Positions 20,814 to 47,655 of a stretch of DNA of 64,000 nucleotides are shown here, in pieces. Positions within the stretch are counted from its first letter, which is position 1, and the number at the start of each line of letters is the position of its first letter. The stretch is from Dehalococcoidia bacterium (GTDB lineage: Bacteria; Chloroflexota; Dehalococcoidia; GIF9; UBA5629): assembly GCA_034432055.1 (NCBI GenBank), contig DAOUCT010000023.1, forward strand, positions 74,126-138,125, given 5' to 3'. The position numbers and the translations under genes are program-made. The notes under the pieces were generated by a model, which was given only the letters and a program-made list of their open reading frames with translations, had not been told where the DNA came from and made no database searches.

Positions 20814-21913
20814 CTTTTCTTCCCAGCATATGGTGTAAGTATGCCGTAATGAATTCGTCCAATTCTCCGTTCAGCACAGAGTTGGCATCGCTGCTTTCAA
20901 AGTCGGTGCGATGGTCTTTTACCATTTTGTAAGGGTGCAAGACGTAGCTTCGGATCTGGTTGCCCCATCCAGCTTCAATCCGTCCGCCTTTCAGTTTAGC
21001 CCTTTCTGCCTCTCTTTTTGCCTGTTCAAGCTGGAAAAGACGCGCATAAAGCACTTTTAAGGCGTTTTCTTTATTCTGGAACTGGGAGCGCTCACTCTGG
21101 CAGGTGACTACTATTCCCGTAGGCAGGTGGGTTATTCTTACAGCGCTGCTTGTTTTCTGCATATGCTGCCCACCCGGTCCACTGGAGCGGAAGGTCTCGA
21201 TTTTTAGGTCATCCGGGTTGATCTTAACGTCTATTTCCCTTTCAACCATAGGCAGGACTTCAACTAGTACAAATGAGGTATGTCGCGCATGGTCGGCATC
21301 AAATGGCGAGATGCGGACAAGCCGATGGACTCCGTGTTCGGATTTGAGATAACCGTAAGCATAATCACCTTTTACTTCTATAGTGGCACTTTTTATCCCT
21401 GCTTCGTCACCTGGTGATATGTCCAATATCTCAGTCTGATAATTATGTTGCTCTGCCCATCTTGTGTACATTCGCAGTAGCATCTCCGCCCAGTCTTGCG
21501 ATTCAGTGCCACCTGCTCCTGCGTGTATACTCAGGATAGCGCTTCTCTGGTCATGTTCACCGTTAAGAAGTAGTCTTGTTTCCAGCTCTTTTAATTCGGA
21601 TGCCAGCTTCTCTGCTTCTCGTCTAATATCATCTTGTATACTAAGATCATTTTCTTCAACAGCGAGTTTTGTCATTTCAAGGAGGTCATTGTTCGTTTTT
21701 TCCATGCTACGCCAAGTATCAACTACTTCTTTGAGCGTAGCTAGCTGGCGCATGACGGACTGGGCTTTGGTTGGGTCAAGCCAAAAATCGGGCTGTGCTG
21801 CTTCGGTCTCTAATCTGGCGATTTCTTTTTCCTTACCGACTATGTCAAAGATGCACCATTATATCAGTTATTTTTTGCCGCATTGCTTCCAGTTTTTCTT
21901 TTATCTCTTGCAT
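20806..21913 (-). CDS. prfB: Peptide chain release factor 2, made by a programmed +1 ribosomal frameshift
   Basis: Frame 0 reads MQEIKEKLEAMRQKITDIMVHL and then hits TGA. The +1 frame continues as DIVGKEKEIARLETEAAQPDFW... through SPF and GGQ motifs to give about 368 aa. The shift site CTT TGA C is at 21850..21844. The ORF track reports only the long downstream frame. Confidence 0.85.
21844..21850 (-). other. prfB +1 frameshift site CTT-TGA-C
   Basis: The heptamer is identical to the canonical RF2 autoregulatory shift site. A weak Shine-Dalgarno-like GGTG lies 4 nt upstream. Confidence 0.8.
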
Positions 21914-32171: not shown

Positions 32172-33470
32172 GTGCAGCGGGTTTTAGCTATGATTCTGGC
32201 TGGCGGTGCCAGTGAGCGGATGAGTATTCTGGCGGAAGAGAGAGCAAAGCCAGCGGTGCCGTTTGGCGGCAAGTATAGAATCATTGATTTTACCTTAAGC
32301 AACTGTGCTAACTCGGGTATCCATAATGTAGCAGTACTTACTCAATTCAATCCCCGTTCTTTAGCCCAGCACATAGGCGTGGGACGTCCCTGGGACCTGG
32401 ACAGGACGAGTGGGGGTGTTGTAATCCTGCAGCCCTTTTTGAGCCGCTTGAGTCACGACTGGTATAAGGGCACAGCCGATGCCATCTACCAGAATATCGA
32501 CTTCATACAGAGACAGAAAGTTGACGAGGTTTTAATTTTAGCTGGTGACCACGTTTACTCGATGCGGTATGACTACATGATACATGCTCATAGGGTCAGA
32601 GATGCAGAGGTTACTGTAGCTGTAACTGAAGTACCTGCGGCTGAAGTTTCCAGGTTCGGCATTGTTATCCTCGACCATAACGAGCGTGTAGTTGGCTTTA
32701 AAGAGAAGCCGAAGGAAGCTACAAGCAACTTGGCTTCCATGGGTATATATGTTTTTGATAAGGACGTCCTGGTTCAGTGCTTAGAAGAGTGTGGGGGAAA
32801 AGGGAGTCACGATTTCGGGAGCCACATTATGCCTGAGATTATCGGCAAATATAAAGTATATGGCTACAGGTTCCGAGGCTATTGGCGAGATGTGGGAACG
32901 ATAGAGGCTTACTGGCGAGCCAACATGGATTTGATAGTTGATTTGCCTGAATTAAACCTGTACGATGCCTCCGCTGAGATAAGGACGGTTTATCACGGGA
33001 GACCACCGGCGAAGATAGGTCCGAAGGCTGGTATAAGCCGCAGTCTTGTTGCGAATGGCGCTATTATCAACGGACGAGTGGAGAATTCGGTCATCTTTCC
33101 AGACGTGTTTGTTCAGGAAGACGCTGTGGTGAGGGAGTCCATCGTCTTTGAAGGTTCTACAGTAGGAAAAGGGGCTATTGTAGACCGGTGCATTATCGAT
33201 AAGCAGGTCTGGATAGGACCAGGGAGCTATATCGGCTTCGGCGATGATATGACGCCGAACAAGGATGAACCACAAAACCTTAACTGCGGCATAACACTTG
33301 TGGGTAAAGGGGCTAGGATACCAGCCGATATTAAGGTGGGGCGTAATTGCAAGATCGGTTGCTGGGTGAGTGACAGCGATTTTACTTCGAAGCTCATTCC
33401 CAGCGGGGAGAGCGTAGTTGCCAAAGCAACCAAACGCCGTGTCCCCAAAATACTGGCGGAAGAGCATTGA
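32172..33470 (+). CDS. glgC: Glucose-1-phosphate adenylyltransferase
   Basis: 432 aa with a GTG start. It has GGASERM...GGKYRIIDF and a left-handed beta-helix C-terminus. Its stop overlaps the next gene's start (ATGA). Confidence 0.85.
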   Translation: MQRVLAMILAGGASERMSILAEERAKPAVPFGGKYRIIDFTLSNCANSGIHNVAVLTQFNPRSLAQHIGVGRPWDLDRTSGGVVILQPFLSRLSHDWYKGTADAIYQNIDFIQRQKVDEVLILAGDHVYSMRYDYMIHAHRVRDAEVTVAVTEVPAAEVSRFGIVILDHNERVVGFKEKPKEATSNLASMGIYVFDKDVLVQCLEECGGKGSHDFGSHIMPEIIGKYKVYGYRFRGYWRDVGTIEAYWRANMDLIVDLPELNLYDASAEIRTVYHGRPPAKIGPKAGISRSLVANGAIINGRVENSVIFPDVFVQEDAVVRESIVFEGSTVGKGAIVDRCIIDKQVWIGPGSYIGFGDDMTPNKDEPQNLNCGITLVGKGARIPADIKVGRNCKIGCWVSDSDFTSKLIPSGESVVAKATKRRVPKILAEEH

Positions 33471-35158
33471 AGACCGGAGCCTTTACCTTAGTTTTGCACA
33501 GTCATATCCCCTATTGTCGCAATGCTGGTCGCTGGCCCCACGGTGAGGAGTGGCTTCATGAGGCTGCTTCTGATACTTATATCCCTTTGCTCGATGCTCT
33601 GTATGACTTAAAACTGCGGGGTTGCCTTTTCAGGCTAACTTTGGGGCTTACTCCGGTTTTACTGGAGCAATTAGCTGATCCCATGGTAATTTCGAACCTT
33701 GTCCAGTTTCTGGAAGAAAAGATCGATCGCGCCAGAAGCGATGTCAAGCGGTTTGAGGCTGCTGGTGAGACGCACCTTGAATATCTGGCTAAGTTTTATC
33801 TGGACCGTTACACCCGTGTCTTGAGGAGTTTTAGTGAAAGGTTTGATCGTGATATTGTCGGAGCGTTCAGAAAACTCCAGGACGAGGGTTACATAGAGAT
33901 ACTTGCAAGTGCGGCAACCCATGCTTATTTGCCGCTGCTTGAACGGGACTCTTCCATTTATGCCCAGTTGCAGGTAGGTAAGACAAGTTACCTTCGACAT
34001 TTTGGCAAAGAGCCGCGCTCTATCTGGCTTCCAGAGTGTGGCTATCGCCCATCTTACTATACTGAAAAAAGTGGGCGGAGATACATCAAGCCGGGACTGG
34101 AATCCTTTCTTGAGGAGATGGGCATAAAGTGTTTCCTTGCCGAGACACATATGATTGAGGGGGGTGAGCCTGTTGGCAAAGCGAGGGAGGAAGTGATCGG
34201 TCCCTACGCCAGCATTCCGAGACGGTATGTGGTACCGCTGGCTAGTTATGCCGAGCCCGTGCGGAAAACCACTTACTTACCTTATTGGGTACAATCCGCT
34301 AAAGTAGCTGCTATTGGTAGGAATAACCGGACCAGTATGCAGGTGTGGTCTGCAGAATGGGGATATCCTGGTGACTACCAGTATCGCGAGTTCCACAAAA
34401 GAGATGGCATTTCTGGTCTTCACTATTGGAAAGTTACTGGTGCTAATTTAGACTTAGCCTATAAAGAGTATTACGATCCTTATCAGGCACAGCAGCGTGT
34501 GGATGAACACAGTACCCATTTTGTCGAACTTGTTGAGCAATTGTTGGTCGATTTTTATCAGGAGACCGGTGAATTCGGTATTATTGCTGCTGCTTATGAT
34601 TCAGAATTGTTCGGGCACTGGTGGTTTGAGGGTGTCGACTGGCTAAAACAAGTATTATACAAGTTAGGTCAAAGCGACGTAGTCGAGCTGACCAACGTGA
34701 GCGATTATCTGGAGCAGCACCCCCCGCAGGATATACTGGTTCTACCCGAAGGCTCGTGGGGATTGGGGGGTGGTCACTTTACATGGTCAAATGTGGATAC
34801 GGAATGGATGTGGAGACTTATCCATGATGCCGAACTGAGAATGGAGCGGCTTGTGGCTATGTACCCGCAAGCCGAGGGCTCGATGAAGGAAGTGCTTAAC
34901 CAAGCAGCCAGGGAATTGCTTTTGCTGCAGTCCAGCGATTGGCAGTTTCTGGTGACTACCGGACAAGCCCGTTTGTACGCCGAGAGCCGTTTTTTGCAGC
35001 ATTTAGATAGGTTTCAGCAATTATGCGGTTCGGTTGAATCCGGCGTGGTCGATGAAACGGTTCTGCGGTTGTGTCACAGTTTATGGGAAGCCGATAAGTT
35101 ATTTCCATACGTGGATTACCATTGTTTCGCTGAGAGAGAAGGCAAGGTAATGCCATGA
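33467..35158 (+). CDS. GH57-family 1,4-alpha-glucan branching enzyme
   Basis: 563 aa. The N-terminal FTLVLHSHIPY motif is of GH57 branching-enzyme type, and both size and position between glgC and glgA fit a branching enzyme. Confidence 0.6.
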   Translation: MKTGAFTLVLHSHIPYCRNAGRWPHGEEWLHEAASDTYIPLLDALYDLKLRGCLFRLTLGLTPVLLEQLADPMVISNLVQFLEEKIDRARSDVKRFEAAGETHLEYLAKFYLDRYTRVLRSFSERFDRDIVGAFRKLQDEGYIEILASAATHAYLPLLERDSSIYAQLQVGKTSYLRHFGKEPRSIWLPECGYRPSYYTEKSGRRYIKPGLESFLEEMGIKCFLAETHMIEGGEPVGKAREEVIGPYASIPRRYVVPLASYAEPVRKTTYLPYWVQSAKVAAIGRNNRTSMQVWSAEWGYPGDYQYREFHKRDGISGLHYWKVTGANLDLAYKEYYDPYQAQQRVDEHSTHFVELVEQLLVDFYQETGEFGIIAAAYDSELFGHWWFEGVDWLKQVLYKLGQSDVVELTNVSDYLEQHPPQDILVLPEGSWGLGGGHFTWSNVDTEWMWRLIHDAELRMERLVAMYPQAEGSMKEVLNQAARELLLLQSSDWQFLVTTGQARLYAESRFLQHLDRFQQLCGSVESGVVDETVLRLCHSLWEADKLFPYVDYHCFAEREGKVMP

Positions 35159-36576
35159 GAATTCTTTTTGTTGCTGCGGAAATTGCCCCGCTGGTCAAAG
35201 TGGGCGGACTGGCTGATGTCATCGGCTCTCTACCCAAAGCACTCAATCGGCTGGGTCACGATGTGCGTGTGATGATACCAAAGTATGGAACGATTGACCT
35301 TGTGGGGTGCAAGGCAAGTCCTGTAGTTGATGAGTTCGAACTCAGTGTTGCCGGGATGGTAGAGCGGGTTTCTTTGGAAATGTTGACGCTAGAAAACGCT
35401 CTTAAGGTCTATCTGGTTGATAATGAGGACTTTAAAAAGGTGAGGGAGCCTTATGGCGAAGGAGAATTACAACGATTTTTGCTTTTCTGTACGGCGGTTG
35501 TGGGTATATTGCCTCGAATGGGTTGGCAACCTGAAATAGTGCATTGCCACGATTGGCATACAGGGCTGATACCTTTAGGGCTTAAGGTGGAGGGTGGCAG
35601 GTATGTTTCTTTCTTTACGATCCACAACTTAGCTTACCAAGGGAATTTTGATACTAGGTTTCTAGCTAACTACAGTCTTGAAAAGTGGTGGCGCTTGTCA
35701 CCCCCCGTTATTTCCGAGCCGCCGTTAAATTTTCTGGGGGCAGGTATACTATGGGCTGATGTGGTGACAACTGTTAGCGAAACATATGCTCGTGAAATAT
35801 TAACAGCTGAATATGGCGAAGGGCTTGATTATCTATTGAGATGTCGACAGGACAGGTTATTCGGCATAGTAAATGGTTTAGATTACAAAGAGTACAACCC
35901 CTCGACTGATTCTTTTCTGGTTGCTAACTATGATGTCGGTAGCCTGGATAAGAGGCTAATTAATAAACTGGCACTGCAAGAGAAGGTTGGACTTCCTAAG
36001 GATGCGGAAGTAGCTTTAATAGGTATGGTATCGCGTCTTGATGACCAAAAAGGTCTTGACATAGTGACCGAGAGTTTTGCCTCTCTGTTTCAGAGAGCAG
36101 GAGTTCAAATGGTGATTTTGGGCAAGGGAAAGGAACGTTATCATACTCTGCTTAGACAAGCAGCAATGGCTTACCCGCAATGTTTAGCTGTGGTGATAGC
36201 TTTTGACGAACCACTTGCTCGTTTGATATATGGGGGGTGCGATATGTTTCTCATGCCGTCCCGTTTTGAGCCGTGTGGTCTGGGGCAACTGATTGCCATG
36301 CGTTATGGGGCGTTGCCGATCGTTCGTCATACTGGTGGTCTGGCTGAGACTGTAGAGAATTTGGCGGATGACCTCAGCATTGGCACCGGGTTCGTATTTT
36401 ATGAGTATAGTGCCAAGGCTTTACTGGAGGCAATTGAGACGGCGGTTAATGCTTATAAAAATAAGCAGGCTTGGCGAAAGGCGATGAGCCGGGCGATGTC
36501 TCAGGACTTTTCGTGGCAGGCATCTGCACGGAAGTACGAGTCCCTCTACCGTCGAGCCTTAGAGGGTCACCTATGA
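35155..36576 (+). CDS. glgA: Glycogen synthase (ADP-glucose type, GT5)
   Basis: 473 aa. The N-terminus MRILFVAAEIAPLVKVGGLADV is diagnostic. Confidence 0.85.
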   Translation: MRILFVAAEIAPLVKVGGLADVIGSLPKALNRLGHDVRVMIPKYGTIDLVGCKASPVVDEFELSVAGMVERVSLEMLTLENALKVYLVDNEDFKKVREPYGEGELQRFLLFCTAVVGILPRMGWQPEIVHCHDWHTGLIPLGLKVEGGRYVSFFTIHNLAYQGNFDTRFLANYSLEKWWRLSPPVISEPPLNFLGAGILWADVVTTVSETYAREILTAEYGEGLDYLLRCRQDRLFGIVNGLDYKEYNPSTDSFLVANYDVGSLDKRLINKLALQEKVGLPKDAEVALIGMVSRLDDQKGLDIVTESFASLFQRAGVQMVILGKGKERYHTLLRQAAMAYPQCLAVVIAFDEPLARLIYGGCDMFLMPSRFEPCGLGQLIAMRYGALPIVRHTGGLAETVENLADDLSIGTGFVFYEYSAKALLEAIETAVNAYKNKQAWRKAMSRAMSQDFSWQASARKYESLYRRALEGHL

Positions 36577-37559
36577 GGGATGAAGCACGCCGTTTAGCTT
36601 TAGTGGTCGATCTAGGAGGCACTAAAACCATAGCTGCAGTGGTAAGTCCGGCGGGCAAGATAATATCGCAGCGTCGCTGTCTCACTCGTAGTGACAAGGG
36701 GGCAAAGGCAGTGTTAAAGCAGCTTTTGCCCCTGATGAAAGACACGGTTGTGCAGGCAGGACTTGAGAGATCCGAGCTAGAGGGGATTGCTATTGCTTGT
36801 GCTGGTATTATTGACATGAGGAAAGGGATAGTTACCATGTCACCCAATATCCCTGGTTTTGCTGGTATCAGGCTGAGGGATATCGTGGAGCGTGAATTCG
36901 GCGTGAGAAGTTATGTTTTAAACGATGCTAGTGCAGCAGCTTGGGGCGAATATTGCTTTGGGGCTGGGAAGGGGGTTAAGAACCTGGTATATCTTACAGT
37001 TAGTACCGGCGTAGGTGGTGGCATAGTAACGAACGGACAACTTTACCTGGGTGCCGATGGCTGTGCCGGTGAAATCGGTCACATGATAATAAAAAAAGAT
37101 GGTCCTCAATGTAAATGCGGGAGACATGGGTGCCTCGAGGCTTTAGTGTCTGGGTGGGCAGTGACCCGAGAAGCGATTGAGCATTTGAAACGAGGAGAAG
37201 AAAGCTCTATTATTAGACTGGCTAGTGGCAAAATTGAGAACATAACCGCAGCAACGGTATCGCTAGCAGCAAAGCAGGGCGATTTAGTGGCTCGAGAAGT
37301 TATAGTTGGTGCTGCCAGTTATCTCGGAGTTGGGCTGGCAAACTTGATTAACATTTTTAACCCCGAATTGATCATTATCGGAGGAGGATTGTCAAAAATG
37401 GGTAACATGTTGCTCGAGCCAGCACGCAAGGTGGCGGAGCAAACAGCTTTTACGTTGCCCAGTCGTACTGTTCGTATTCTGAGAGCACGCTTTATCACCC
37501 ATGCCGGGATTTTAGGTGCTGCTGCCTATGTCTTCAGTCAAGAACGAAGGGGATTGTAA
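36573..37559 (+). CDS. ROK-family glucokinase
   Basis: The ATG at 36573 overlaps the glgA stop (ATGA). It has LVVDLGGTKT and the ROK zinc motif CKCGRHGCLE. Confidence 0.7.
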   Translation: MRDEARRLALVVDLGGTKTIAAVVSPAGKIISQRRCLTRSDKGAKAVLKQLLPLMKDTVVQAGLERSELEGIAIACAGIIDMRKGIVTMSPNIPGFAGIRLRDIVEREFGVRSYVLNDASAAAWGEYCFGAGKGVKNLVYLTVSTGVGGGIVTNGQLYLGADGCAGEIGHMIIKKDGPQCKCGRHGCLEALVSGWAVTREAIEHLKRGEESSIIRLASGKIENITAATVSLAAKQGDLVAREVIVGAASYLGVGLANLINIFNPELIIIGGGLSKMGNMLLEPARKVAEQTAFTLPSRTVRILRARFITHAGILGAAAYVFSQERRGL

Positions 37560-37561
37560 GA

Positions 37562-38863
37562 ATGATCTATTGGGCACCATTGTTCCATTTCTACCAGCCA
37601 CCTACTCAGACCCCCGATGTCTTGATGAAAGTAAGTAACGAGGCTTACCGCCCTTTGCTTGAAGTGATCGGTGAGTTTCCTCATGCCAAAGCCACAATCA
37701 ATATCTGTGGTGTGCTTAGTGAAATGCTGTCCCAATGTGGTTATTCTGATGTGCTGGCTAAACTCAGGCAACTGGCTGAGAATGGTCAGGTAGAGTTTAC
37801 TGGCTCGGCAATGTACCATCCTGTACTACCTCTAATCCCTAGTGAGGAGATAGAGCGACAGATTAAGCTAAACTACATTACCAATCGTAGCCTTTTAGGC
37901 GATGTTTATGCTCCGCGCGGGTTTTTTCCGCCGGAACTCTGTTATTCAAAGGCGATAATTGGCCCCGTCATCGAATCTCGACATGAATGGATTGTTTTAA
38001 GTGGTATTGCTTGTCCTGTTGCCTGGCCCTTGGATGTTATATACCAAGCTGGACAAGAGGAAAGTAAATTGGTGGTCTTATTTCGTGACGATATTTTAAG
38101 CAACAAGATCAGTTTTAGGGCTGTAGATGGTGAAAGTTTTATTGAGCATCTCCGACGATTGCGGGGGTCCGAGGGCGATGTATACGTGATCACCGCTATG
38201 GACGCGGAGACATTTGGGCATCATATACAGCACTGGGACAAGCTTTTCTTATCGCCTGTTCTCGAGACGCTGGAACCAATGCAGAATGGTGATAAGACTC
38301 TTCATGAGCAAAAATTACTTGCTGACCACCATCGTAAGTTATTCGAGTTTGAGAGTAGAAAGGAAGATAAGCAGATAAGGATGGTCACTATCAGCCAGCT
38401 TTTGGAACTTTTCCCTCGCGGTGACTTGATCGAACCAAGACCTTCATCTTGGAGCACTTCTGCTGATGATATAAAGGCACAGAATTATTACCCTCTTTGG
38501 AACGACAGAAATAATTTGATTCATCAGTTGCAATGGGAGCATCTGGATATAACAATTAATGTTGCTCGCAAAGCTGTAGAACTGGCAGATAATGATACCA
38601 GCCGCAATTTCGCCAGGATCGCCAGGTCTTCTCTTGATGCGGCTCTTCATAGTTGTCAGTTTTGGTGGGCGAGTAAGAAACCGATGTGGGATGTAAACAT
38701 GGTATATCGTGGGTTGAATCTACAGCGAGGAGTGTTGCTTAATGCATATAAGGCAATATCTACCAGTAATTGTAACCCGTCTATTAAGAAGGAATATTAT
38801 TATAAGGTGGTGGCAGCAAGGCATATTTTTGACCAGATTACGGACAAGCTGTACACGGACTGA
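37562..38863 (+). CDS. GH57-family glycoside hydrolase, possibly an alpha-amylase or debranching enzyme
   Basis: 433 aa with an N-terminal FHFYQPP GH57 motif and a catalytic-region ETFGHH motif. Confidence 0.55.
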   Translation: MIYWAPLFHFYQPPTQTPDVLMKVSNEAYRPLLEVIGEFPHAKATINICGVLSEMLSQCGYSDVLAKLRQLAENGQVEFTGSAMYHPVLPLIPSEEIERQIKLNYITNRSLLGDVYAPRGFFPPELCYSKAIIGPVIESRHEWIVLSGIACPVAWPLDVIYQAGQEESKLVVLFRDDILSNKISFRAVDGESFIEHLRRLRGSEGDVYVITAMDAETFGHHIQHWDKLFLSPVLETLEPMQNGDKTLHEQKLLADHHRKLFEFESRKEDKQIRMVTISQLLELFPRGDLIEPRPSSWSTSADDIKAQNYYPLWNDRNNLIHQLQWEHLDITINVARKAVELADNDTSRNFARIARSSLDAALHSCQFWWASKKPMWDVNMVYRGLNLQRGVLLNAYKAISTSNCNPSIKKEYYYKVVAARHIFDQITDKLYTD

Positions 38864-38880
38864 ACGCCGAAGAGCTTGTT

Positions 38881-41115
38881 TTGCTGCTGGGAGAAGCAGC
38901 ACATAGCATTTGTAAGCTGTGGGTTGAGCATTTGGGGCGTATTTATCTAGGACTGGTTATACATAATCATCAGCCTGTTGGTAATTTCCCCTGGGTATTC
39001 GAGCAGGCTTATCAGCAGACCTATTTGCCGATGATAGAGGCTTTGGGAAGACACCCTACTATACGTTTGTCTCTTCATTATAGCGGTTGTCTCCTTGACT
39101 GGCTGGAAGAATCCCACCCGGAATTCTTGTCCTGTCTTGCCAGGCTGGTTGAGCGCCATCAAGTGGAACTTGTAGGGGGAGCGTATTATGAACCGATTTT
39201 GCCAGCGATTCCTGATGCTGACAAAATTGGGCAAATTGCTAAGATGGAAAGGTCTCTTAAACATAAGTTTGGTGTGACGCCTCGTGGTTTCTGGCTAGCA
39301 GAAAGGGTCTGGGAGCCCCATTTAGTCAAAGTGCTGGCTGATGCCGGGGTGGAGTGGGCTCTGTTGGATGATGGCGCTTTTAAGTCGCTGGGGTTAAAAG
39401 AGCGTGATTTGTTGGGCTATTATATTACAGAGGAGCAGGGGAAGCACATAAAGTTATTTCCTATAAGTAAGTTACTCCGATACTCCATTCCGTGGCGACC
39501 TGTAGAAGAGGTCATAGATTTCTTGAAGGCAGAAGCTTCAATCGGCGATGGCAAAATAGCTGTATTTGGCGACGATGGCGAGAAATTCGGTGTGTGGCCG
39601 GGAACGTATAAGCTTTGCTGGCAAGATGGCTGGGTCGAGGATTTCTTGTGCCAACTTGAAGTCAATCGCGAGTGGCTCTCCACCATACCTTTAAGTGAAT
39701 ATATAAGTAAATTCTCGCCACTGGGCAGAGTTTACTTACCCTGTGCCTCTTACGATGAGATGATGGAATGGTCGTTACCTGCTTATGATTCCTGGGAATA
39801 CGCTAACCTAAAACGCCAGATGGATACTGATGGGCAAGAAGATATAAAGAGATACATGTACTGTGGCTTCTGGCGCAATTTCCTGGTCAAGTATCCTGAG
39901 ATTAACCGAATGTACAGGAAGATGCTTTTTGTCCATCAAAAGGTGTATCAAGCTCGTGCCCTGAGTTCTGGCGATTGCGGTCTGGAAGAGTTGTGGAAAT
40001 CACAATGCAACTGCCCTTACTGGCATGGCATTTTTGGTGGTATTTACCTCGCGGATATAAGAGCTACCACTTATCAGCATCTAATACAGGCTGAGAATAA
40101 GGCTGACCGAATTATTCAGAGATGTCACCGCTGGTTGAACAAAGTACGGCGCCGAAGATGCAGATGGCTAAGATGGCGTCAAATTGACTTCGACGGCGAT
40201 GGTGCAGATGAGTTGCTGGTTGAGAGCGATGAGTTTTCTTTTTATGTGAGCCCGGCGGAGGGAGGCTCTATTTTTGAGTGGGATATCCGTTCTCACAATT
40301 TCAATATCCTAAGCACACTGGCGCGGAGACCAGAAGCTTATCACATTGCTTTAGCTAAAGCGGGTGACGATGAGCTGAGTGAACCGGAAACGAGCGTGCG
40401 CAGCATACATGACTCGGTAAGAATGAAGGACAAAGCTGTGATTAAGCACATTGTATATGACGAGTACCCCCGTTCCAGTATGCAAGACCACTTCTTTTCT
40501 CTCGGTGTCAGTATGGAAGAATTCGCTAACGGTCGCTTTGAGGAATTGGGTGATTTCATCAATCAGCAATATGATGCTGTGGCGACAACCAATGGCGACA
40601 AGATAAAACTTGAACTACGCAGGGATGGGAAGTTGCTGCTTGAAAACGAGGCTATAGCCTTTAATGTATGGAAGCAGATCTTGTACAAATATGGCGAAAA
40701 GACACTTCGGGTGTCCTATCAACTAAGGAATGCCGGTAGAGCGCCTGTTGGAGTTGTTTTTGGTAATGAATGGAATATTAACTTACTTGCTGGGGGACGT
40801 AATCGACAGGCTTATTACAAGGTTCCGGCAGTAGCTTTTAGCGATTGCCTTGATTCCTGGAATGAGCTGGAAGATATCCACAAAGTGGTGATGGGAAACA
40901 GTTATCTTGGCATAGAATTGGAACTGAAGGTATCACCAAGTGTGAGACTATGGCAGTTTCCTGTGGAGAGTATCTCCAATTCTGAAGGTGGTGTAGAAAA
41001 GCTGTACCAGGCAAGCTGTTTCGTTTTGTGTCTACCTTTATTTTTATCTCCCGGCGAGACTGCTAATCTGTGTATTGAATGGCACGTTCGTCCACCTAAT
41101 GCACCAGTTGAATAA
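38881..41115 (+). CDS. GH57-family 4-alpha-glucanotransferase / amylopullulanase-like enzyme
   Basis: 744 aa with VIHNHQPVGNF and the features of GH57 domains A and B, plus a C-terminal beta-sandwich. Confidence 0.6.
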   Translation: MLLGEAAHSICKLWVEHLGRIYLGLVIHNHQPVGNFPWVFEQAYQQTYLPMIEALGRHPTIRLSLHYSGCLLDWLEESHPEFLSCLARLVERHQVELVGGAYYEPILPAIPDADKIGQIAKMERSLKHKFGVTPRGFWLAERVWEPHLVKVLADAGVEWALLDDGAFKSLGLKERDLLGYYITEEQGKHIKLFPISKLLRYSIPWRPVEEVIDFLKAEASIGDGKIAVFGDDGEKFGVWPGTYKLCWQDGWVEDFLCQLEVNREWLSTIPLSEYISKFSPLGRVYLPCASYDEMMEWSLPAYDSWEYANLKRQMDTDGQEDIKRYMYCGFWRNFLVKYPEINRMYRKMLFVHQKVYQARALSSGDCGLEELWKSQCNCPYWHGIFGGIYLADIRATTYQHLIQAENKADRIIQRCHRWLNKVRRRRCRWLRWRQIDFDGDGADELLVESDEFSFYVSPAEGGSIFEWDIRSHNFNILSTLARRPEAYHIALAKAGDDELSEPETSVRSIHDSVRMKDKAVIKHIVYDEYPRSSMQDHFFSLGVSMEEFANGRFEELGDFINQQYDAVATTNGDKIKLELRRDGKLLLENEAIAFNVWKQILYKYGEKTLRVSYQLRNAGRAPVGVVFGNEWNINLLAGGRNRQAYYKVPAVAFSDCLDSWNELEDIHKVVMGNSYLGIELELKVSPSVRLWQFPVESISNSEGGVEKLYQASCFVLCLPLFLSPGETANLCIEWHVRPPNAPVE

Positions 41116-42349: not shown

Positions 42350-43468
42350 CTAAGTACCGAGTTCGCTGCGAATACTGATGAAAGCGAGAAGGCTGTCTCG
42401 GGCAATCATTCCAAGAAGGTTACCGTTTCTGATGACTGGAAGCTGGTTGATGTTATATTCAGTCAATATTCGCAGTACTGTAGCCAGGTCGTCGTGGGGT
42501 CCAACTGATTTCAGTTTGTGGACAGGGGTCATGATATCGGCAACAGTTTTAAGGGACCACTGGTCTTTAGGTGTGGATTTTATATCGTGGATTGTGACCA
42601 ACCCCACCATTTTATCGTTTTCTACCACTGGGAAGCACCGTCGTCCTGAGGTGAGTATTTGCTCATGTACCAATCTCTGGACGTCGAGTTCTGGTGGAAC
42701 AGCGGAGCATTCCTGGGTCATGATTTCGCTAACAGTGTGTCCTTTGAGCATGTCGAGGAGTGCTGTCTGGCGGTAACTTGTGGTAGCGGCATTTTCAAGG
42801 AACCACCCTATGAAAGCTAGCCACAACCCATTTATCCAGCTACCGTAAAATATCAGTCCTATGCCGATAAGAATGAACAAATAGCCCACACCACGCCCGA
42901 TATTGGAGGCGATTTTTGTGGCATTAAGTAAAGTTCCAGTACGCCACCATATTAGTGAACGGAGGACTCGTCCTCCGTCAAGGGGGAAGCCGGGTATGAG
43001 GTTGAAAGCGGCAAGAACGAGATTAATCCAGCCAAGCCAGAAGGAGACTGCTTTAACGAAGTCAGGAACACCTTTGAGATAAAACCAGATAGCTAGAAAT
43101 ATGCCACCGATGACCAGGCTTGTGAGCGGTCCGGCAAGCGCCATCCGGAATTCAACTTTAGGTTGTCTGGGCTCTTCAGTCATCTGCGAGATGCCACCAA
43201 AGATGAACAGTGTAATCGAATGTATCCTGATACCTGCTGCCTGTGCTACTAAACTGTGTGCTAGCTCATGGGCGAGGACCGAGCCGAAGAAGAGTAAGCT
43301 TGTTACCAGCCCGGCGATTACCGAGGTCATAATATTCCAATCAGGGTATGCCTGGGGGAAGTAGCCGACCGTTAGCGCCCAGGTAACGAGGGCGAAAACT
43401 ATGAACCAGGTGTAGTGCAATCTTAAAGGAATGCCAAATGCCTTACCAAGGGATATGCCGTTTGCCAT
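42350..43468 (-). CDS. M50-family (site-2-protease-like) membrane zinc metalloprotease with tandem CBS domains
   Basis: 372 aa. The HELAHSLVA HEXXH motif sits in a transmembrane helix. Multiple transmembrane segments are followed by a C-terminal CBS pair. Confidence 0.7.
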   Translation of the reverse strand: MANGISLGKAFGIPLRLHYTWFIVFALVTWALTVGYFPQAYPDWNIMTSVIAGLVTSLLFFGSVLAHELAHSLVAQAAGIRIHSITLFIFGGISQMTEEPRQPKVEFRMALAGPLTSLVIGGIFLAIWFYLKGVPDFVKAVSFWLGWINLVLAAFNLIPGFPLDGGRVLRSLIWWRTGTLLNATKIASNIGRGVGYLFILIGIGLIFYGSWINGLWLAFIGWFLENAATTSYRQTALLDMLKGHTVSEIMTQECSAVPPELDVQRLVHEQILTSGRRCFPVVENDKMVGLVTIHDIKSTPKDQWSLKTVADIMTPVHKLKSVGPHDDLATVLRILTEYNINQLPVIRNGNLLGMIARDSLLAFISIRSELGT

Positions 43469-43684
43469 AATTTATCCTCTATTGTGTCTGCTGCTACGCC
43501 TTTAAGTTTAGGGGTTTTCAAGCGTGTTTTCAAGTGAGCATGGCGCATTTTTCCATCGAGCTGAATGTATGTTGTAGAGGTAGCCTTGCCTTGAAGATGA
43601 ATTTAGCTTGATGTCACACTATCTAATTGATTTCTGCGCTGAATCAACGAAAGGTATTCAAGCTGATATTGCAAGATGTGATGG

Positions 43685-44116
43685 TTATCCCAGCCGTTTT
43701 ACGAAGACGAGCTTATCATCGCCAGGGGCATAAAAATCAGGAATCTGGCATATCAATTGGTAGCCTTGAGAGGCGTAGAGACGTTTTGCTCTGCCATATT
43801 CAGGTCTGGAAGATGTTTCAATGACGATTATCTTTCCTCTAGCCTTCTTGATTTCTTCTTCAGCGGAATTCAGCAAGGTTTTGCCGATGCCTTTTTGCTG
43901 AAAGTCAGGCGATATTACAAGCCAGTAGATATCCCAGGTTGCTTCGGTTAGTGGTGCGTGTCCAAAGCAGATGTAGCCTGCGATTGAAGAACCAACTTCT
44001 GCGACTATCACATTATAGCCTGAGCGTGTTCCGTTACGCAGATACTCATCTAGGACCTCTTCCGCTACAACTATCTCACCGGGATTAAACTCTGGAGTAT
44101 TGCGCAGTATCTGCAT
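43685..44116 (-). CDS. GNAT-family N-acetyltransferase
   Basis: It has the acetyl-CoA-binding motif QQKGIGKTLL. The start codon is uncertain (candidates at 44116, 44143 and 44179), and all of them overlap the upstream ATP-grasp gene. Confidence 0.6.
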   Translation of the reverse strand: MQILRNTPEFNPGEIVVAEEVLDEYLRNGTRSGYNVIVAEVGSSIAGYICFGHAPLTEATWDIYWLVISPDFQQKGIGKTLLNSAEEEIKKARGKIIVIETSSRPEYGRAKRLYASQGYQLICQIPDFYAPGDDKLVFVKRLG

Positions 44117-45164
44117 TATCGCTGGCTTGTCCCTCTGTTTCATAGGTCTGTTTGTTGGTTTGGCTGTCATGATTATCAAGGGCTAACTGGACTAGTTTTT
44201 GAATGAATTGCTCATATTCTATTCCTGCAGTTCTGGCTTGCAGCGCGGCACCCGAGTCAGGTGATATGTCTGGATTTGGGTTTAGTTCTAGGACTTTAAG
44301 GTTGCCTTTTGAGTCCAGGCGAAGGTCAATCCTGGCGTAGCCTCGATTGCCTAGGATCTCAAAAGCTGCGAGGGAAGTTGCGATTATGTTTTGTTGGAGC
44401 TTGTAATCTATGTTGGCTGGGCAATGTGCAGTGGTGTGTCTAAAATATAGGCTGTTCGGATCCCATTTGGCTGCGAAGGTAAGGATGGCAGGCTTTGTCT
44501 CTGGCAAGGAATATACTATTTCTGAGACGGGCAATGTTGTTGGTGGGTTTGTCCCCAGAACCATCACGTTAAACTCCCGTCCATCTAGCAGTTCCTCTAT
44601 CAGTACCTTGCCTCTGAAACGCTCGCTTGTCACCTTGACCTGCTTTTCCAGCGAAATGAGGTCATAGACAACGCTCTCTTCACAAATACCTGCACTTCCG
44701 TCCTCTGAACATGGTTTCACAATACAGGGGAAGTCTATTGCAAAGAGGTGCAGGGTATCGGGGGTCAGCACCTGGTAATTTGGTGTGTCAATACCTGCTA
44801 ATTGGAGATGTGCTTTCATTGCTGCTTTATCTAGAGCTAGGGATAGTGCTGTACTGTGACACCCGGTATACGGGATGTCTAGACATGATAGAAAGTCAGC
44901 TACGATAGCTTCAGCTTCTGGCTGGGAATCAAAGCCCTCGAAGAGGTTAAAAATTATGTCGGCTTTTATCGACCTAAGTCGTCTTAACGCTGATTGGAGT
45001 GGTGGTCTAAGGGGCAAACATGTTACTTGGTACCCAATTTTCTCGAGTGTTTGGCGCACAGCACGAGTGTCGGAAAAGATGCGAAGGGCAGCATTTTTTT
45101 CCACCTGAGTATGGCAGCGGCTCAGGTCTGGCGTGTTGTAGATTATGGTTATTTCACCACGCAT
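44085..45164 (-). CDS. ATP-grasp carboxylate-amine ligase of the D-Ala-D-Ala-ligase-like family
   Basis: 359 aa. It has an ATP-grasp core with a C-terminal LELNPNPD motif (compare E-x-N-T-x-P-G in Ddl). It overlaps the preceding gene by 16 nt. Confidence 0.6.
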   Translation of the reverse strand: MRGEITIIYNTPDLSRCHTQVEKNAALRIFSDTRAVRQTLEKIGYQVTCLPLRPPLQSALRRLRSIKADIIFNLFEGFDSQPEAEAIVADFLSCLDIPYTGCHSTALSLALDKAAMKAHLQLAGIDTPNYQVLTPDTLHLFAIDFPCIVKPCSEDGSAGICEESVVYDLISLEKQVKVTSERFRGKVLIEELLDGREFNVMVLGTNPPTTLPVSEIVYSLPETKPAILTFAAKWDPNSLYFRHTTAHCPANIDYKLQQNIIATSLAAFEILGNRGYARIDLRLDSKGNLKVLELNPNPDISPDSGAALQARTAGIEYEQFIQKLVQLALDNHDSQTNKQTYETEGQASDNADTAQYSRV

Positions 45165-46165
45165 TGAGGATACCTTTTCAATGCTGAGTTCAGGATTTCC
45201 AGAATTAGCTTCTGGTATGTCCAGCCTGACTTGATTGCCATGATGGGTAGATCACTACTTTTGGGGTTTAGTCCGGGCAGCGGGTTTATTTCTAGGAAAT
45301 ATGGGTTTCCCTCACGGTCGAGGCGGAAGTCAAGCCTGGCGAAGTCGCGGCAGCCAAGGAGTTTGAACACCTTGAGGCTGGTAGATGTGATGTGTTGTGC
45401 AATTTCTGGTGCCAGATTGGCTGGGCACTCATATTGTAGTAAGCGTTCCCAGTTTCGTTTCATTTCAAGGGAATACACGAAGTGATGACTGCCGTTTTTT
45501 GGGGCTATGCGCATGATACCCAAGACCTCGGCTGGTGAATTACCCACTATACCTACGGTGATGTCTTCACCAGCGATGAACTCTTCTACCACTGCGGGCT
45601 GTTGGTAATGTTCGAGGAGAAAAGCCGCCATTTCTGCTAGTTGTCTTGCTGTCTTAGCCACAGAGTTGGTACGGATACCTTTACTTGAACCTTCATAAGC
45701 TGGTTTAACAAAGACTGGAAAAGGAAAATCTGTCCAGTCTATATTGGTCAGTTGTGTAGTATCGGTGACCAGTGTCCATCTGGGGGTGTAAATTCCCGCC
45801 GTAGCTACCAGTTTTTTTGTCAACGGCTTGTCTAGGCATATCGATAGACATTGTGGGTCTGAACCTGAATAAGGAATGCTAAGCATTTCGAGGACAGATG
45901 GCACCTGTGCCTCTCTGCTTTTGTAGTTCCCTATCCCTTCAGCTATATTAAACACGAAGTCTACGTTGTGACGGAGAATATTATTCAGGAAATCCTTGCC
46001 GCCGCCCAGTTTAATGACCGAATGACCACTGCTTTCGATAGTTGCAACAATAGCATCTATGGTCTGAGGAGAGTCGTATTCTTCCAAGGCATCATCAAGA
46101 TAGGAAGACGAGTACAATGCCCTTTCAACATCTTCTTTAAGATCGTAAGTCAATCCTACTCTCAT
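45149..46165 (-). CDS. ATP-grasp carboxylate-amine ligase of the D-Ala-D-Ala-ligase-like family (tandem paralog)
   Basis: 338 aa with a C-terminal YFLEINPLPGL motif. Its N-terminal region is non-canonical for a true Ddl. Confidence 0.6.
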   Translation of the reverse strand: MRVGLTYDLKEDVERALYSSSYLDDALEEYDSPQTIDAIVATIESSGHSVIKLGGGKDFLNNILRHNVDFVFNIAEGIGNYKSREAQVPSVLEMLSIPYSGSDPQCLSICLDKPLTKKLVATAGIYTPRWTLVTDTTQLTNIDWTDFPFPVFVKPAYEGSSKGIRTNSVAKTARQLAEMAAFLLEHYQQPAVVEEFIAGEDITVGIVGNSPAEVLGIMRIAPKNGSHHFVYSLEMKRNWERLLQYECPANLAPEIAQHITSTSLKVFKLLGCRDFARLDFRLDREGNPYFLEINPLPGLNPKSSDLPIMAIKSGWTYQKLILEILNSALKRYPQCVVK

Positions 46166-46179
46166 TTTTAAGGTCGGAG

Positions 46180-47496
46180 TCAGCGTTTCTCCTTATTGTT
46201 TTGAACTTGAGTGCCGGTCCGGTGGTATTCAAGGAAATTCGCCTCAGTGATTGGTCTAGGGCTTGCTTCAGGATTTCGGTACCAGAAGAAACGTCCTTGA
46301 TAGTTTCTAAGTATCAATTCGCCTTCTGTTTGTGTGAGCAAATAACTGGGTTGGAGGGGGACTTTGCCACCACCATCAGGCAGGTCGATAACAAAAGTGG
46401 GTATAGCTAGCCCAGAGGTATGTCCTCGCATTTTCTCTATTATCGCAAGTCCGGTCTCAACGGGTGTACGCAGATGCTCTACCCCTTTGACCTCATCGCA
46501 CTGGAAGAGATAATAGGGGCGCACCTTTATTTTGAGGAGATTATGGCAAAGCTTCATCTGTGTTTCCACAGTGTCATTTATGCCTTTAAGTAGCACTGAT
46601 TGGTTGCTTACTGGTACCCCGGCGCGTAGTAGCCTGTCACATGCAGTTGCAGATTCTGATGTTATTTCGTTAGGATGGTTGAATTGAGTGTTGAGCCATA
46701 TAGGACCGTATTTCGACAGCATGGTGCACAGTTCATCGTCTACGCGTTGGGGCAGTACCACAGGGAACCTAGTGCCAAGGCGGATTATTTCCACGTGTCC
46801 AATCTGTCTGAGTCCAGCAATCACATTTTCAAGACGTGGTGTGGAAAGCGACAAGGGGTCACCGCCGGATATTATGACATCCCTGATTTCCCTGTGTTTT
46901 CGGATGTATTCCAGCATGGTTTTGATTTCGGCTGGTGTGCGTATCCAATTGCCGTCGTGCCATTCCCGTTTACGTGTGCAATGGCGGCAGAGAACAGGGC
47001 ATATATTGGTAAGTACCATGAGCACTCTATCCGGGTAGCGGTGAACCAGCCCTGGAGCAACAGAGTCTCGTATTTCTGCGAGGGGGTCTTCGAATCCCCT
47101 ATCGGATAGGGCTATTTCCTGAAATGATGGTATTGCCTGTTTTCTTATCGGGTCATCGGGATCACTAACATTGATGAGGGATAGGTAATGGGGGGTTATT
47201 GAAAAGGGATATCTGGAACTAACTAACTTGAGCTGAGTTTGTTCGTCCTTTGATAGCGGTATCAGGTTTGCCAGTTCTGTAACACTGGTGATTCTATGCC
47301 GGAATTGCCATTTCCAATCAGACCAATCTTTCTCAGAGACATTGCCAAAAAGTTTGTTTCTTGTGCTATCATGTGGGGCTCTAACTCCTGAACTTGGAGG
47401 TTCTTCATCCTCTACCACTACCTCATTGCTAGTAGTGGTGGTAAAGCCAGGAGGCTCCTCTTGCTCGTCTTTTACACCAATTGTGTGTCTTGCCAC
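46180..47496 (-). CDS. kamA: Radical-SAM lysine 2,3-aminomutase family protein
   Basis: 438 aa with the CxxxCxxC cluster CPVLCRHCTRKREW. The KamA-like N-terminus DWSDWKWQFRHRITSVTEL is preceded by a ~45-aa acidic extension. Confidence 0.7.
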   Translation of the reverse strand: MARHTIGVKDEQEEPPGFTTTTSNEVVVEDEEPPSSGVRAPHDSTRNKLFGNVSEKDWSDWKWQFRHRITSVTELANLIPLSKDEQTQLKLVSSRYPFSITPHYLSLINVSDPDDPIRKQAIPSFQEIALSDRGFEDPLAEIRDSVAPGLVHRYPDRVLMVLTNICPVLCRHCTRKREWHDGNWIRTPAEIKTMLEYIRKHREIRDVIISGGDPLSLSTPRLENVIAGLRQIGHVEIIRLGTRFPVVLPQRVDDELCTMLSKYGPIWLNTQFNHPNEITSESATACDRLLRAGVPVSNQSVLLKGINDTVETQMKLCHNLLKIKVRPYYLFQCDEVKGVEHLRTPVETGLAIIEKMRGHTSGLAIPTFVIDLPDGGGKVPLQPSYLLTQTEGELILRNYQGRFFWYRNPEASPRPITEANFLEYHRTGTQVQNNKEKR

Positions 47497-47655
47497 TTGT
47501 TCCTCTCCTTTCTAAATTCGCATGACTATATTTAGTGCTTTTGATGATACCGTAACACAATTTTTCCCTGCTGTCAATGCCTATGAATGTTGACAAAGAT
47601 TATATTAGGGGTTATTTTATGATAAAAAAAATTGTTGGTTAAGGAGCGCCTAACA

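Follow-up and report, generated by a model that had tools for sequence, protein, structure and literature searches.

A conserved gene cluster joining a predicted lysine 2,3-aminomutase, two Ddl-fold ATP-grasp ligases and a GNAT acetyltransferase: a candidate pathway to an acetylated beta-lysine conjugate

What might two ligases of the D-alanine–D-alanine ligase (Ddl) fold be doing side by side between a lysine 2,3-aminomutase-like enzyme and an acetyltransferase? The question is raised by a gene cluster of a Dehalococcoidia bacterium (Chloroflexota; GIF9; UBA5629), which lies in the 64,000-nucleotide (nt) stretch of DNA analyzed here, referred to throughout as ‘the window’ (GenBank assembly GCA_034432055.1, contig DAOUCT010000023.1, positions 74,126 to 138,125 of the forward strand). 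Four co-directional open reading frames (ORFs) on the minus strand encode a KamA-like protein, two ATP-grasp ligases (ligase 1, or G1, and ligase 2, or G2) and a GNAT. Pfam and NCBIfam domains agree with the ORFs and with the layout proposed in an earlier, sequence-only reading of this DNA. With moderate confidence, we interpret the cluster as a cytoplasmic small-molecule pathway acting on beta-lysine, the product of which would be an acetylated beta-lysine pseudo-peptide or amide conjugate—an inducible solute or polyamine-like metabolite. The genes and the elements discussed with them, in window coordinates, are as follows.

46180..47496, minus strand: KamA-family radical-SAM/pyridoxal phosphate (PLP) aminomutase, predicted lysine 2,3-aminomutase; 438 amino acids (aa); Pfam Radical_SAM and LAM_C
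45149..46165, minus strand: ligase 1 (G1), putative Ddl-fold ATP-grasp amide ligase, probably not an authentic Ddl; 338 aa; Pfam Dala_Dala_lig_C
44085..45164, minus strand: ligase 2 (G2), putative Ddl-fold ATP-grasp amide ligase, paralogue of G1; 359 aa; Pfam Dala_Dala_lig_C
43685..44170, minus strand: GNAT N-acetyltransferase of the 2r7h family; 161 aa from ATG 44170, with alternative starts TTG 44179 and ATG 44143; Pfam Acetyltransf_1/7/10
47502..47508, minus strand: Shine-Dalgarno sequence GGAGAGG of the aminomutase gene, 5 nt upstream of its GTG start at 47496, read from the sequence
47446..47460, minus strand: motif copy 1, E-E-P-P-G, aa 13–17 of KamA, nucleotides GAGGAGCCUCCUGGC
47392..47406, minus strand: motif copy 2, E-E-P-P-S, aa 31–35 of KamA, nucleotides GAAGAACCUCCAAGU

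The genes are closely packed. G1 and G2 overlap by 16 nt, as had been claimed, but the aminomutase gene and G1 do not overlap and are 14 nt apart. The GNAT gene had been placed from about 44116; because the longest ORF is homologous to the orthologues and to the solved protein PDB 2r7h only from residue 11 onward, its start is instead either ATG 44170 or ATG 44143, and its overlap with G2 is 59–86 nt. All of the candidate starts lack a good Shine-Dalgarno sequence. On a JGI metagenome contig (3300022548) that carries an identical G1, an independent gene caller gives products of 438, 338, 359 and 152 aa, and so chooses ATG 44143. The C-terminal tail of G2 (44085..44180, minus strand) is ~30 residues longer in the window, and in its nearest relatives among the loci described below (L004 and L008), than in most orthologues (329–336 aa), and in these three it runs 59–86 nt into the start of the GNAT gene. 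A scan for promoters and terminators gave nothing above shuffled expectation to mark the ends of the operon, and an Rfam scan of the whole window at gathering thresholds found no riboswitch and no other RNA family; a lysine riboswitch is excluded at the sensitivity of that scan.

The first enzyme of the proposed pathway is the aminomutase. Its best NCBIfam model is AblA lysine 2,3-aminomutase (TIGR03820), at 481 bits, below the equivalog cut-off of 525.4, and it passes the KamA subfamily model (TIGR00238; 326 bits against 199.2). It falls below the cut-offs of the other curated models: glutamate (452 bits against 650), arginine (413 against 600) and EpmB (240.6 against 369.3). NCBI names for orthologues go no further than ‘KamA family radical SAM protein’, which accords with a subfamily model that is passed and equivalog cut-offs that are not. 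The protein aligns with the solved enzyme of C. subterminale (PDB 2a5h; E = 1e-129), and in 64 sequences from several phyla the three Cys of the radical-SAM CxxxCxxC motif (CPVLCRHC, aa 166–173) are invariant. So are K378, equivalent to the PLP-binding lysine K337 of 2a5h, and R175, equivalent to the carboxylate-binding R134. The two ligands of the epsilon-ammonium group of lysine, D293 and D330, correspond to D334 (in FQCD) and D371 (in FVIDLP), and these, too, are invariant in the 64 sequences. In glutamate 2,3-aminomutase, Asp293 and Asp330 are replaced by Lys and Asn. Because the lysine-specific residues are present, and are without exception in the alignment, the proposal that this enzyme makes beta-lysine from L-lysine can be called well supported, if not proven.

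The two ligases are named ‘D-alanine–D-alanine ligase’ in public annotations. Against the NCBIfam Ddl model (NF002378; cut-off 243 bits) G1 scores 181.3 bits and G2 147.7, and both lie below every curated cut-off for Ddl, VanA, D-Ala-D-Lac and D-Ala-D-Ser ligases. The solved proteins closest to the two family profiles are Ddl and VanA (E = 1e-34 to 1e-38); the next is the L-amino-acid ligase 3vot (E = 8e-8 and 8e-19). To each other, G1 and G2 are 32% identical, with an alignment score of 138 bits; the best solved Ddl reaches only 103 bits with G1 and 76 with G2. Since each is nearer to the other than to any solved Ddl, we regard them as an old tandem paralogue pair. The AlphaFold model of G1 has a predicted local distance difference test (pLDDT) score of 83.5; by fold search it is a complete three-domain Ddl fold, and it superposes on Ddl structures over its full length with TM-scores of 0.67–0.86 at 19–26% sequence identity.

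Which residues are kept in this fold, and which are changed, was mapped by profile alignment to E. coli DdlB and by family invariants; the N-terminal 67 residues of the DdlB reference are approximate, and residues 68–305 agree with the printed PDB alignment. Both ligases keep the ATP, Mg and acyl-phosphate residues (equivalents of K97, K144, S150, K215, R255, D257, E270 and N272). At the D-Ala site, H63 of DdlB is replaced by E76 in both; Y216 is replaced by N or D in G1, between the invariant R237 and W239, and by the invariant W234 in G2; L282 becomes the invariant D305 in G1; and G276 becomes the invariant D299 in G2. Alignment of G1 and G2 to the N-terminal E15 of DdlB is unreliable. To judge from these residues, G1 and G2 appear to be Ddl-fold enzymes that can form amide bonds but whose substrate pockets have been remodeled and are more acidic, and the acidic residues at the former D-Ala site would suit a diamino (cationic) substrate. 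The likeness to Ddl and VanA thus lies in the three-domain ATP-grasp fold and the residues for ATP, Mg and acyl phosphate, whereas low identity, a substituted D-Ala site, occurrence as a tandem pair and the absence of a mur/dcw context set the pair apart. No Mur or Fts protein occurs among the 43 ORFs of at least 200 aa in the 64-kb window, all scanned with Pfam, which upholds the earlier remark that mur genes are not nearby. Curated cut-offs, residues and gene context all indicate, as the first reading had it, that the ligases are probably not authentic Ddl. PylC was considered as their closest ligase relative and rejected: neither profile has it among its 60 best PDB matches.

The last enzyme, the GNAT, has no match to AblB (TIGR03827) at E <= 0.01. 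Its best curated model is RimI, at 45.8 bits, below the cut-off of 86.4. Its one strong solved relative is PDB 2r7h (E = 2.7e-29; the next best is 1e-4), a protein deposited as ‘putative D-alanine N-acetyltransferase’ and 99% identical to a protein of Oleidesulfovibrio (Desulfovibrio) alaskensis-type bacteria.

Is this grouping of genes a local accident? A survey of one genome per species with peptide patterns specific for G1 gave at least 578 confirmed loci, and the best 80 of these were compared by tblastn with the window proteins. The gene immediately before G1 encodes the aminomutase in 68 of the 73 loci with enough flanking sequence (69 if L026, in which the genes overlap, is counted); of 77 loci, 70 have a second Ddl-like ligase after G1, and a GNAT follows in 59 of 74. 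The order KamA-G1-G2-GNAT is complete in 52 of the 68 loci with full flanks. These 80 loci are mostly from Dehalococcoidia, including Dehalogenimonas; the remainder include Thermodesulfobacteriota, Acidobacteriota, Deferrimicrobiaceae, Planctomycetota, WOR-3, Omnitrophota, Margulisiibacteriota, Krumholzibacteriia and Myxococcota. A search started independently from 2r7h led to the same four genes in Desulfovibrio mangrovi and in alaskensis-like contigs. The linkage of the four genes is therefore conserved, from Dehalococcoidia to cultured Desulfovibrio. Of the three outcomes by which the first reading could have been refuted—authentic Ddl enzymes, a linkage lost in relatives, or an aminomutase short of lysine-specific residues—none was observed. 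All-against-all clustering of the ORFs across loci revealed no further widely conserved gene, and in three more distant loci without KamA (L064, L082 and L086) the neighboring genes have no informative domains.

Less constant neighbors are nevertheless instructive. A protein of 580–585 aa is encoded downstream of the GNAT in ~16 loci of Dehalococcoidales and in D. mangrovi (e.g. L018:4558-6300 and L087:8629-10386), the versions from the two groups being 60% identical. Its C-terminal domain matches acetylpolyamine amidohydrolases best (E = 1e-66), its N-terminal part has weak GNAT matches, and no NCBIfam model matches the fusion protein. The association of a GNAT with an amidohydrolase-like enzyme suggests reversible acetylation of a primary alkylamine. 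Some 28 kb from the cluster, the window has a stand-alone gene of the histone deacetylase/acetylpolyamine-amidohydrolase family (15129..16163, minus strand; 344 aa; Hist_deacetyl, E = 1e-97); its product might serve as the deacetylase that other genomes encode as a fusion next to the cluster. Genes for membrane proteins of the MarC family adjoin the cluster in 9 (by clustering) or 12 (by tblastn) of ~80 loci, and MFS transporter genes in 8 of ~80 (by clustering).

In the Omnitrophota and Margulisiibacteriota (L074, L075 and L078), G2 and the GNAT are replaced by an ATP-grasp protein resembling RimK/LysX, with no Pfam hit, and a peptidase resembling S66 LD-carboxypeptidases. An MFS transporter gene follows this variant cluster in the Margulisiibacteriota locus L075 only; the Omnitrophota loci have no MFS match. 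Because G2 seems to have been exchanged for a non-orthologous ATP-grasp protein, two ligations appear to be the conserved requirement. A peptidase gene is also found next to the cluster in the window: 42350..43468 (minus strand), 216 nt downstream of the GNAT, encodes a membrane peptidase of the M50 site-2-protease type with two CBS domains, and has a promoter-like site of its own (43533..43505). It was considered as a fifth member of the operon and rejected, being linked only in the closest relatives (L001, L004–L015) and across that 216-nt gap.

The regulators found beside the cluster differ among lineages. A MarR-like regulator gene is divergently oriented in 17 loci. In Desulfovibrio, a sigma-54-dependent activator of the response-regulator type is encoded directly upstream (L087:2857-4293; L088:2874-4310), and D. 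mangrovi has a consensus –24/–12 promoter, TGGCA-N7-TTGC (TTGGCATATCTGTTGCTG), ~110 nt before kamA (L087, start 4569). No such promoter was found in the alaskensis-like contigs, and a paper on the sigma-54 regulome of D. vulgaris does not mention the cluster. These regulators imply that expression is inducible and, in Desulfovibrio, under two-component control. Taken together, the partner genes point to a small molecule that is inducible and contains two ATP-dependent amide bonds, and to a reversibly acetylated alkylamine that is sometimes transported.

How, then, might the four enzymes work together? In the first step, which sequence supports well, the KamA-type radical-SAM/PLP enzyme would turn L-lysine into beta-lysine. 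In the second and third, to go by fold and residues, each ligase would spend ATP on converting a carboxylate into an acyl phosphate and would couple this to an amine, producing two amide bonds. Ligase 1, always beside the aminomutase, most likely takes beta-lysine directly, and ligase 2 would make the second bond. In the fourth, the GNAT would acetylate a free amine that remains. Such a route would lead either to a pseudo-di- or tripeptide that includes beta-lysine and bears an N-acetyl group, or to a beta-lysyl amide conjugate. In other genomes, the acetylpolyamine-amidohydrolase-like deacetylase and MarC or MFS proteins apparently control whether this product is acetylated and where it resides. 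The likely role of the product is that of a condition-induced solute or polyamine-like metabolite, serving osmotic, nitrogen or charge balance, rather than a cell-wall precursor.

Several observations weigh against this interpretation, or against parts of it. The aminomutase misses the AblA equivalog cut-off, so its substrate may be a related basic compound instead of lysine. The GNAT is missing from the Planctomycetota, WOR-3, Omnitrophota and Margulisiibacteriota versions, and acetylation is for that reason unlikely to be essential to the core chemistry. The 80 loci were recruited through G1, which makes its presence among them universal by construction. The conserved Pro-Pro motif of the aminomutase, described below, hints at a link with translation that the pathway does not require. 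Finally, many of the genomes come from habitats that are not saline—among them freshwater, peat, groundwater and termite gut—which weakens a purely osmotic role. The osmolyte proposed in the first reading is accordingly not specifically supported; the amidohydrolase-like partner fits a cycle of acetylation and deacetylation on an alkylamine at least as well as it does an end-product osmolyte.

Searches of the full-text literature, which mostly did not extend to subscription journals, found no description of the cluster, consistent with the earlier view that the arrangement is new. Its parts have several precedents. By analogy, it seems to join the idea of AblA/AblB, an aminomutase with a GNAT, to amide ligases of the Ddl fold, in a logic that recalls PylB/PylC and the synthesis of N-acetylglutaminylglutamine amide (NAGGN). 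The AblA/AblB pathway, which makes N-epsilon-acetyl-beta-lysine in methanogens and some bacteria (kamA-yodP in Bacillus), likewise has an aminomutase of the lysine 2,3-aminomutase (LAM) type followed by a GNAT in one operon, and it is inducible in known cases. Here, however, two ATP-grasp ligases stand between the two, the GNAT belongs to the 2r7h family rather than AblB, and the aminomutase has an N-terminal extension bearing a Glu-Glu-Pro-Pro (EEPP) motif and scores below the AblA cut-off. In the pyrrolysine pathway, too, a radical-SAM rearrangement of lysine (PylB) precedes ligation to an amine by a Ddl-like ATP-grasp enzyme (PylC). The analogy is functional: PylB is not a KamA-family aminomutase, and our cluster lacks PylD and has two ligases and a GNAT. 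In NAGGN synthesis (Ngg/AsnO), GNAT and ATP-grasp activities also make a small N-acetylated peptide osmolyte, but Ngg fuses both activities, uses glutamine, belongs to another ATP-grasp subfamily and involves neither an aminomutase nor a beta-amino acid. The polyamine cycle (GNATs of the SpeG/SSAT type with acetylpolyamine amidohydrolase) resembles the pairing of GNAT and amidohydrolase-like enzyme seen with the cluster in two phyla. It differs in that the cluster would itself make the molecule to be acetylated, a derivative of beta-lysine, and in that the deacetylase is fused to a GNAT-like domain and absent beside the cluster of the window.

The N-terminal extension of the aminomutase raises a question of its own. 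It is ~41–45 residues long and is found in the orthologues as well. That it is translated follows from the GGAGAGG 5 nt upstream of GTG 47496, a position occupied by AAGGAG or AGGAGG in orthologues. The first reading, which noted an acidic extension of ~45 residues, was right about its existence but not about its nature: it is not generically acidic, and instead holds a conserved, duplicated motif under constraint at the level of RNA. Almost all of its conservation lies in this motif, which usually occurs twice, as (E/D)(E/D)EPP(G/S), 8–14 further residues, and (E/D)EEPP(G/S). In 63 KamA orthologues there are 87 instances of [DE][DE]PP[GS], against 3 in the 257,222 residues of other ORFs at the same loci (~260-fold enrichment), and in a six-frame translation of the window there are three, two of them in this extension. 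Two copies are present in 37 orthologues and one in 13; Desulfovibrio has the forms MEPPS and ETPPA, or AEPPS. P33 and P34, in the second copy, are invariant in a 32-sequence alignment of several phyla. For most lineages the first Pro-Pro falls at codons 13–21; one subclade has it near codon 33. A structure model of the aminomutase, itself of low confidence (pLDDT 57.5), has residues 1–42 unstructured.

The choice of codons in the motif is constrained as well. CCU serves as the first Pro codon in 85% of instances, compared with 20% of 491 other Pro-Pro pairs at the same loci and 6–39% at 18 conserved Pro columns in the core of KamA. The second is CCA in 48%, compared with 14% of other pairs, and the Gly/Ser position has an RGY codon in 94%. 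CCU-CC is used even in the GC-rich Desulfovibrio. At the RNA level the conserved word is CCUCC, the anti-Shine-Dalgarno core, and for the 11 closest sequences RNAalifold predicts that it pairs with the gene's own Shine-Dalgarno. As a general mechanism such sequestration was rejected: the pair probabilities of 44 orthologues vary inconsistently around a mean of 0.21, and the value in the window is 0.07. The commonest predicted partner of the Pro codons is a run of Glu codons 9–13 nt upstream. Covariation in this hairpin is weak, with one clean compensatory case (L018) and 13 CCCCC instances that have no partner, and the fold of the 5′ region of the window gene is not significant (z-score –1.46). 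A separate feature is present in one subclade (L001, L009–L015), in which a near-perfect RNA palindrome, ACGGCCGUUACC-N3-GGUACGGCCGU, lies ~10–40 nt past the second motif and encodes a mirror-like peptide, TAVT-x-GTAV; this suggests a conserved hairpin within the reading frame.

The EEPP motif is real, and candidate explanations for it are a ribosome-pause sensor, a local RNA structure, a partner-docking motif or some combination of these. The constraint on synonymous positions suggests a cis-regulatory element embedded in the coding sequence. A more specific idea, which we consider rather unlikely as it stands, is that the first ~35 codons of kamA act as a cis-acting translational sensor: two Pro-Pro pause sites (CCU-CC), preceded by Glu codons (GAG/GAA) with which they can pair, would set expression of the whole operon, and the ribosome would pause there according to EF-P activity or in response to the cationic product. 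In its strongest form, the product would feed back on EF-P or the ribosome. In eukaryotes, polyamines modulate eIF5A-dependent pausing at PPW. In Salmonella, PPG is among the two top-scoring EF-P-dependent tripeptides, and gave the largest ratio of wild-type to efp-mutant reporter expression of any single tripeptide, 10.4 (PMC3638311).

Other explanations of the cluster have to be set against the beta-lysine conjugate pathway. We think it distinctly improbable, although it survives better than the rest, that the product is a secreted antimetabolite or ‘Trojan-horse’ peptide, in which the ligases add carrier amino acids to a warhead derived from beta-lysine, the GNAT (elsewhere the S66 peptidase) confers self-resistance, and MFS or MarC proteins handle export. 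Ddl-like and other ATP-grasp L-amino-acid ligases act in this way in the bacilysin, rhizocticin and tabtoxin pathways. L-amino-acid ligases (BacD/YwfE, RizA/RizB, TabS; BL00235) make di- and tripeptides without ribosomes, sometimes with two ligases in a cluster, and a GNAT for self-resistance would be possible there. RimI-type enzymes and MccF-type S66 peptidases detoxify aminoacyl-nucleotide antibiotics; the best curated match of our GNAT is RimI, an S66 peptidase gene follows KamA-G1 with an MFS gene in the Margulisiibacteriota and alone in the Omnitrophota, and MFS and MarC genes adjoin loci of Dehalococcoidales. Yet G1 and G2 are far nearer to Ddl than to 3vot, and enzymes that would form a warhead by tailoring are absent. 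The cluster lies in housekeeping, core chromosomal regions of small genomes and is kept across a whole class and many phyla, which is unusual for an antibiotic cluster. Its linkage to transporters is sporadic (MFS 8 and MarC 9–12 of ~80 loci), and an acetylpolyamine-amidohydrolase-like partner would reverse an acetylation that gave resistance. Two ATP-grasp ligases and a GNAT also occur together in microviridin and graspetide systems (MdnB, MdnC and MdnD), and the acidic, Thr-rich tail of KamA is superficially like a core peptide. Graspetide ligases, however, are RimK-like and bind a leader, whereas G1 and G2 are Ddl-like over their full length, and a lysine aminomutase has no role in graspetide chemistry. 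Among ORFs of at least 80 aa at ~80 loci, a size range above that of shorter, precursor-sized ORFs, no conserved small ORF that could be a graspetide precursor gene was found; the only one was for a winged helix-turn-helix regulator.

Modification of a protein is less probable still, and we rate it as highly unlikely. In its most concrete form the cluster would provide a new, ATP-grasp route to beta-lysylated EF-P, acting on a lysine side chain as PylC does, and the Pro-Pro motifs of kamA would sense EF-P activity. PylC joins methylornithine to the epsilon-amine of lysine. The EpmA/EpmB system also relies on a KamA-family enzyme for beta-lysine, and the Pro-Pro motifs of kamA are of the kind that requires EF-P. 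In gamma-proteobacteria the beta-lysine that modifies EF-P comes from EpmB (PMC2821294), and PPG is strongly EF-P-dependent in Salmonella (PMC3638311); the two conserved Pro-Pro sites near the start of the aminomutase, with their codon-level constraint, suggest regulation. Against this, our aminomutase belongs to the AblA/LAM type (EpmB model, 241 bits against 369) and has a LAM_C domain, which EpmB proteins lack (PMC2821294). The ligases are ATP-grasp proteins, and no LysRS-type domain, as would mark an EpmA-like gene, was found by Pfam among the window ORFs of at least 200 aa. Nor is efp linked: tblastn found no match in the window or ~90 related loci with an E. coli EF-P query of approximate sequence. 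G1 has the full Ddl fold, and in both ligases the part of the omega loop that bears the K215 equivalent is retained, as is usual where an enzyme closes over a small substrate. The constitutive modification of a translation factor would not be expected to have inducible regulators of its own, and the deacetylase partner resembles acetylpolyamine amidohydrolases. By these various comparisons, the cluster falls outside the authentic Ddl, AblB, EpmB and graspetide systems.

A similarly slight probability attaches to a storage or polycationic polymer, in which the ligases would act repeatedly, in the manner of cyanophycin synthetase, to build an oligo- or poly-(beta-lysine) polyamide that is capped or neutralized by acetylation. 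Beta-lysine has a free carboxylate and a distal amine and can polymerize, as in the side chain of streptothricin; peptidases are linked to the cluster in several phyla (S66, and the neighboring M50-CBS protein), and at one Gemmataceae locus a protein of the S51 (cyanophycinase/PepE) family stands in tandem directly after ligase 2. This full S51 link is confined to that one locus (L072), with an 83-residue fragment match in a second, and the M50-CBS linkage to the closest relatives; there is no equivalent of a primer-binding domain or of the CphA1 N-domain, and Ddl-fold enzymes are not known to be processive. That G1 and G2 are ordinary peptidoglycan enzymes, divergent D-Ala-D-Ala (or D-Ala-D-X) ligases standing by chance beside a lysine aminomutase, is scarcely credible: they carry the Ddl name in public annotations, and Ddl and VanA are their nearest solved structures, but all curated Ddl/Van thresholds are missed, the equivalents of H63, Y216, G276 and L282 are changed, the ligases always occur as a pair in the company of KamA and a GNAT, not of mur or fts genes, and the window is devoid of mur genes.

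The surroundings of the cluster can be described briefly. By Pfam, the 43 window ORFs of at least 200 aa are of a housekeeping kind, and include rpoB/C, rpoD, dnaG, ffh, secDF, purine genes, a glycogen cluster and a TRAP transporter. The glycogen/alpha-glucan cluster (32172..41115, plus strand) consists of three genes of the GH57 family (one of the branching-enzyme type and two others), glgC, a glycogen synthase gene and a ROK kinase gene; it adjoins the operon neighborhood and is syntenic only with the closest relatives (L004–L008). The prfB gene (20806..21913, minus strand) has a programmed +1 frameshift site, CTT TGA C, at 21844..21850. A short ORF from ATG 21913 enters this site, and the main ORF, of 315 aa, lacks the first ~28 positions of the PCRF profile.

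If the interpretation of the cluster as a beta-lysine conjugate pathway is true, hundreds of anaerobic species make a beta-lysine-derived metabolite that has not been described. The species that carry the cluster include most sampled Dehalococcoidia, organisms of relevance to the subsurface and to bioremediation, and also the genetically tractable Desulfovibrio; its presence in strains like Desulfovibrio alaskensis G20 opens the question to direct experiment. The chemistry of the Ddl fold would then extend beyond cell-wall precursors, and an orphan of structural genomics, PDB 2r7h, would gain a function. A systematic misannotation as ‘D-alanine–D-alanine ligase’, which can mislead inferences about peptidoglycan in the Chloroflexota, would also be corrected. 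And the EEPP/CCUCC element would be a compact case of regulation inside an enzyme's own reading frame.

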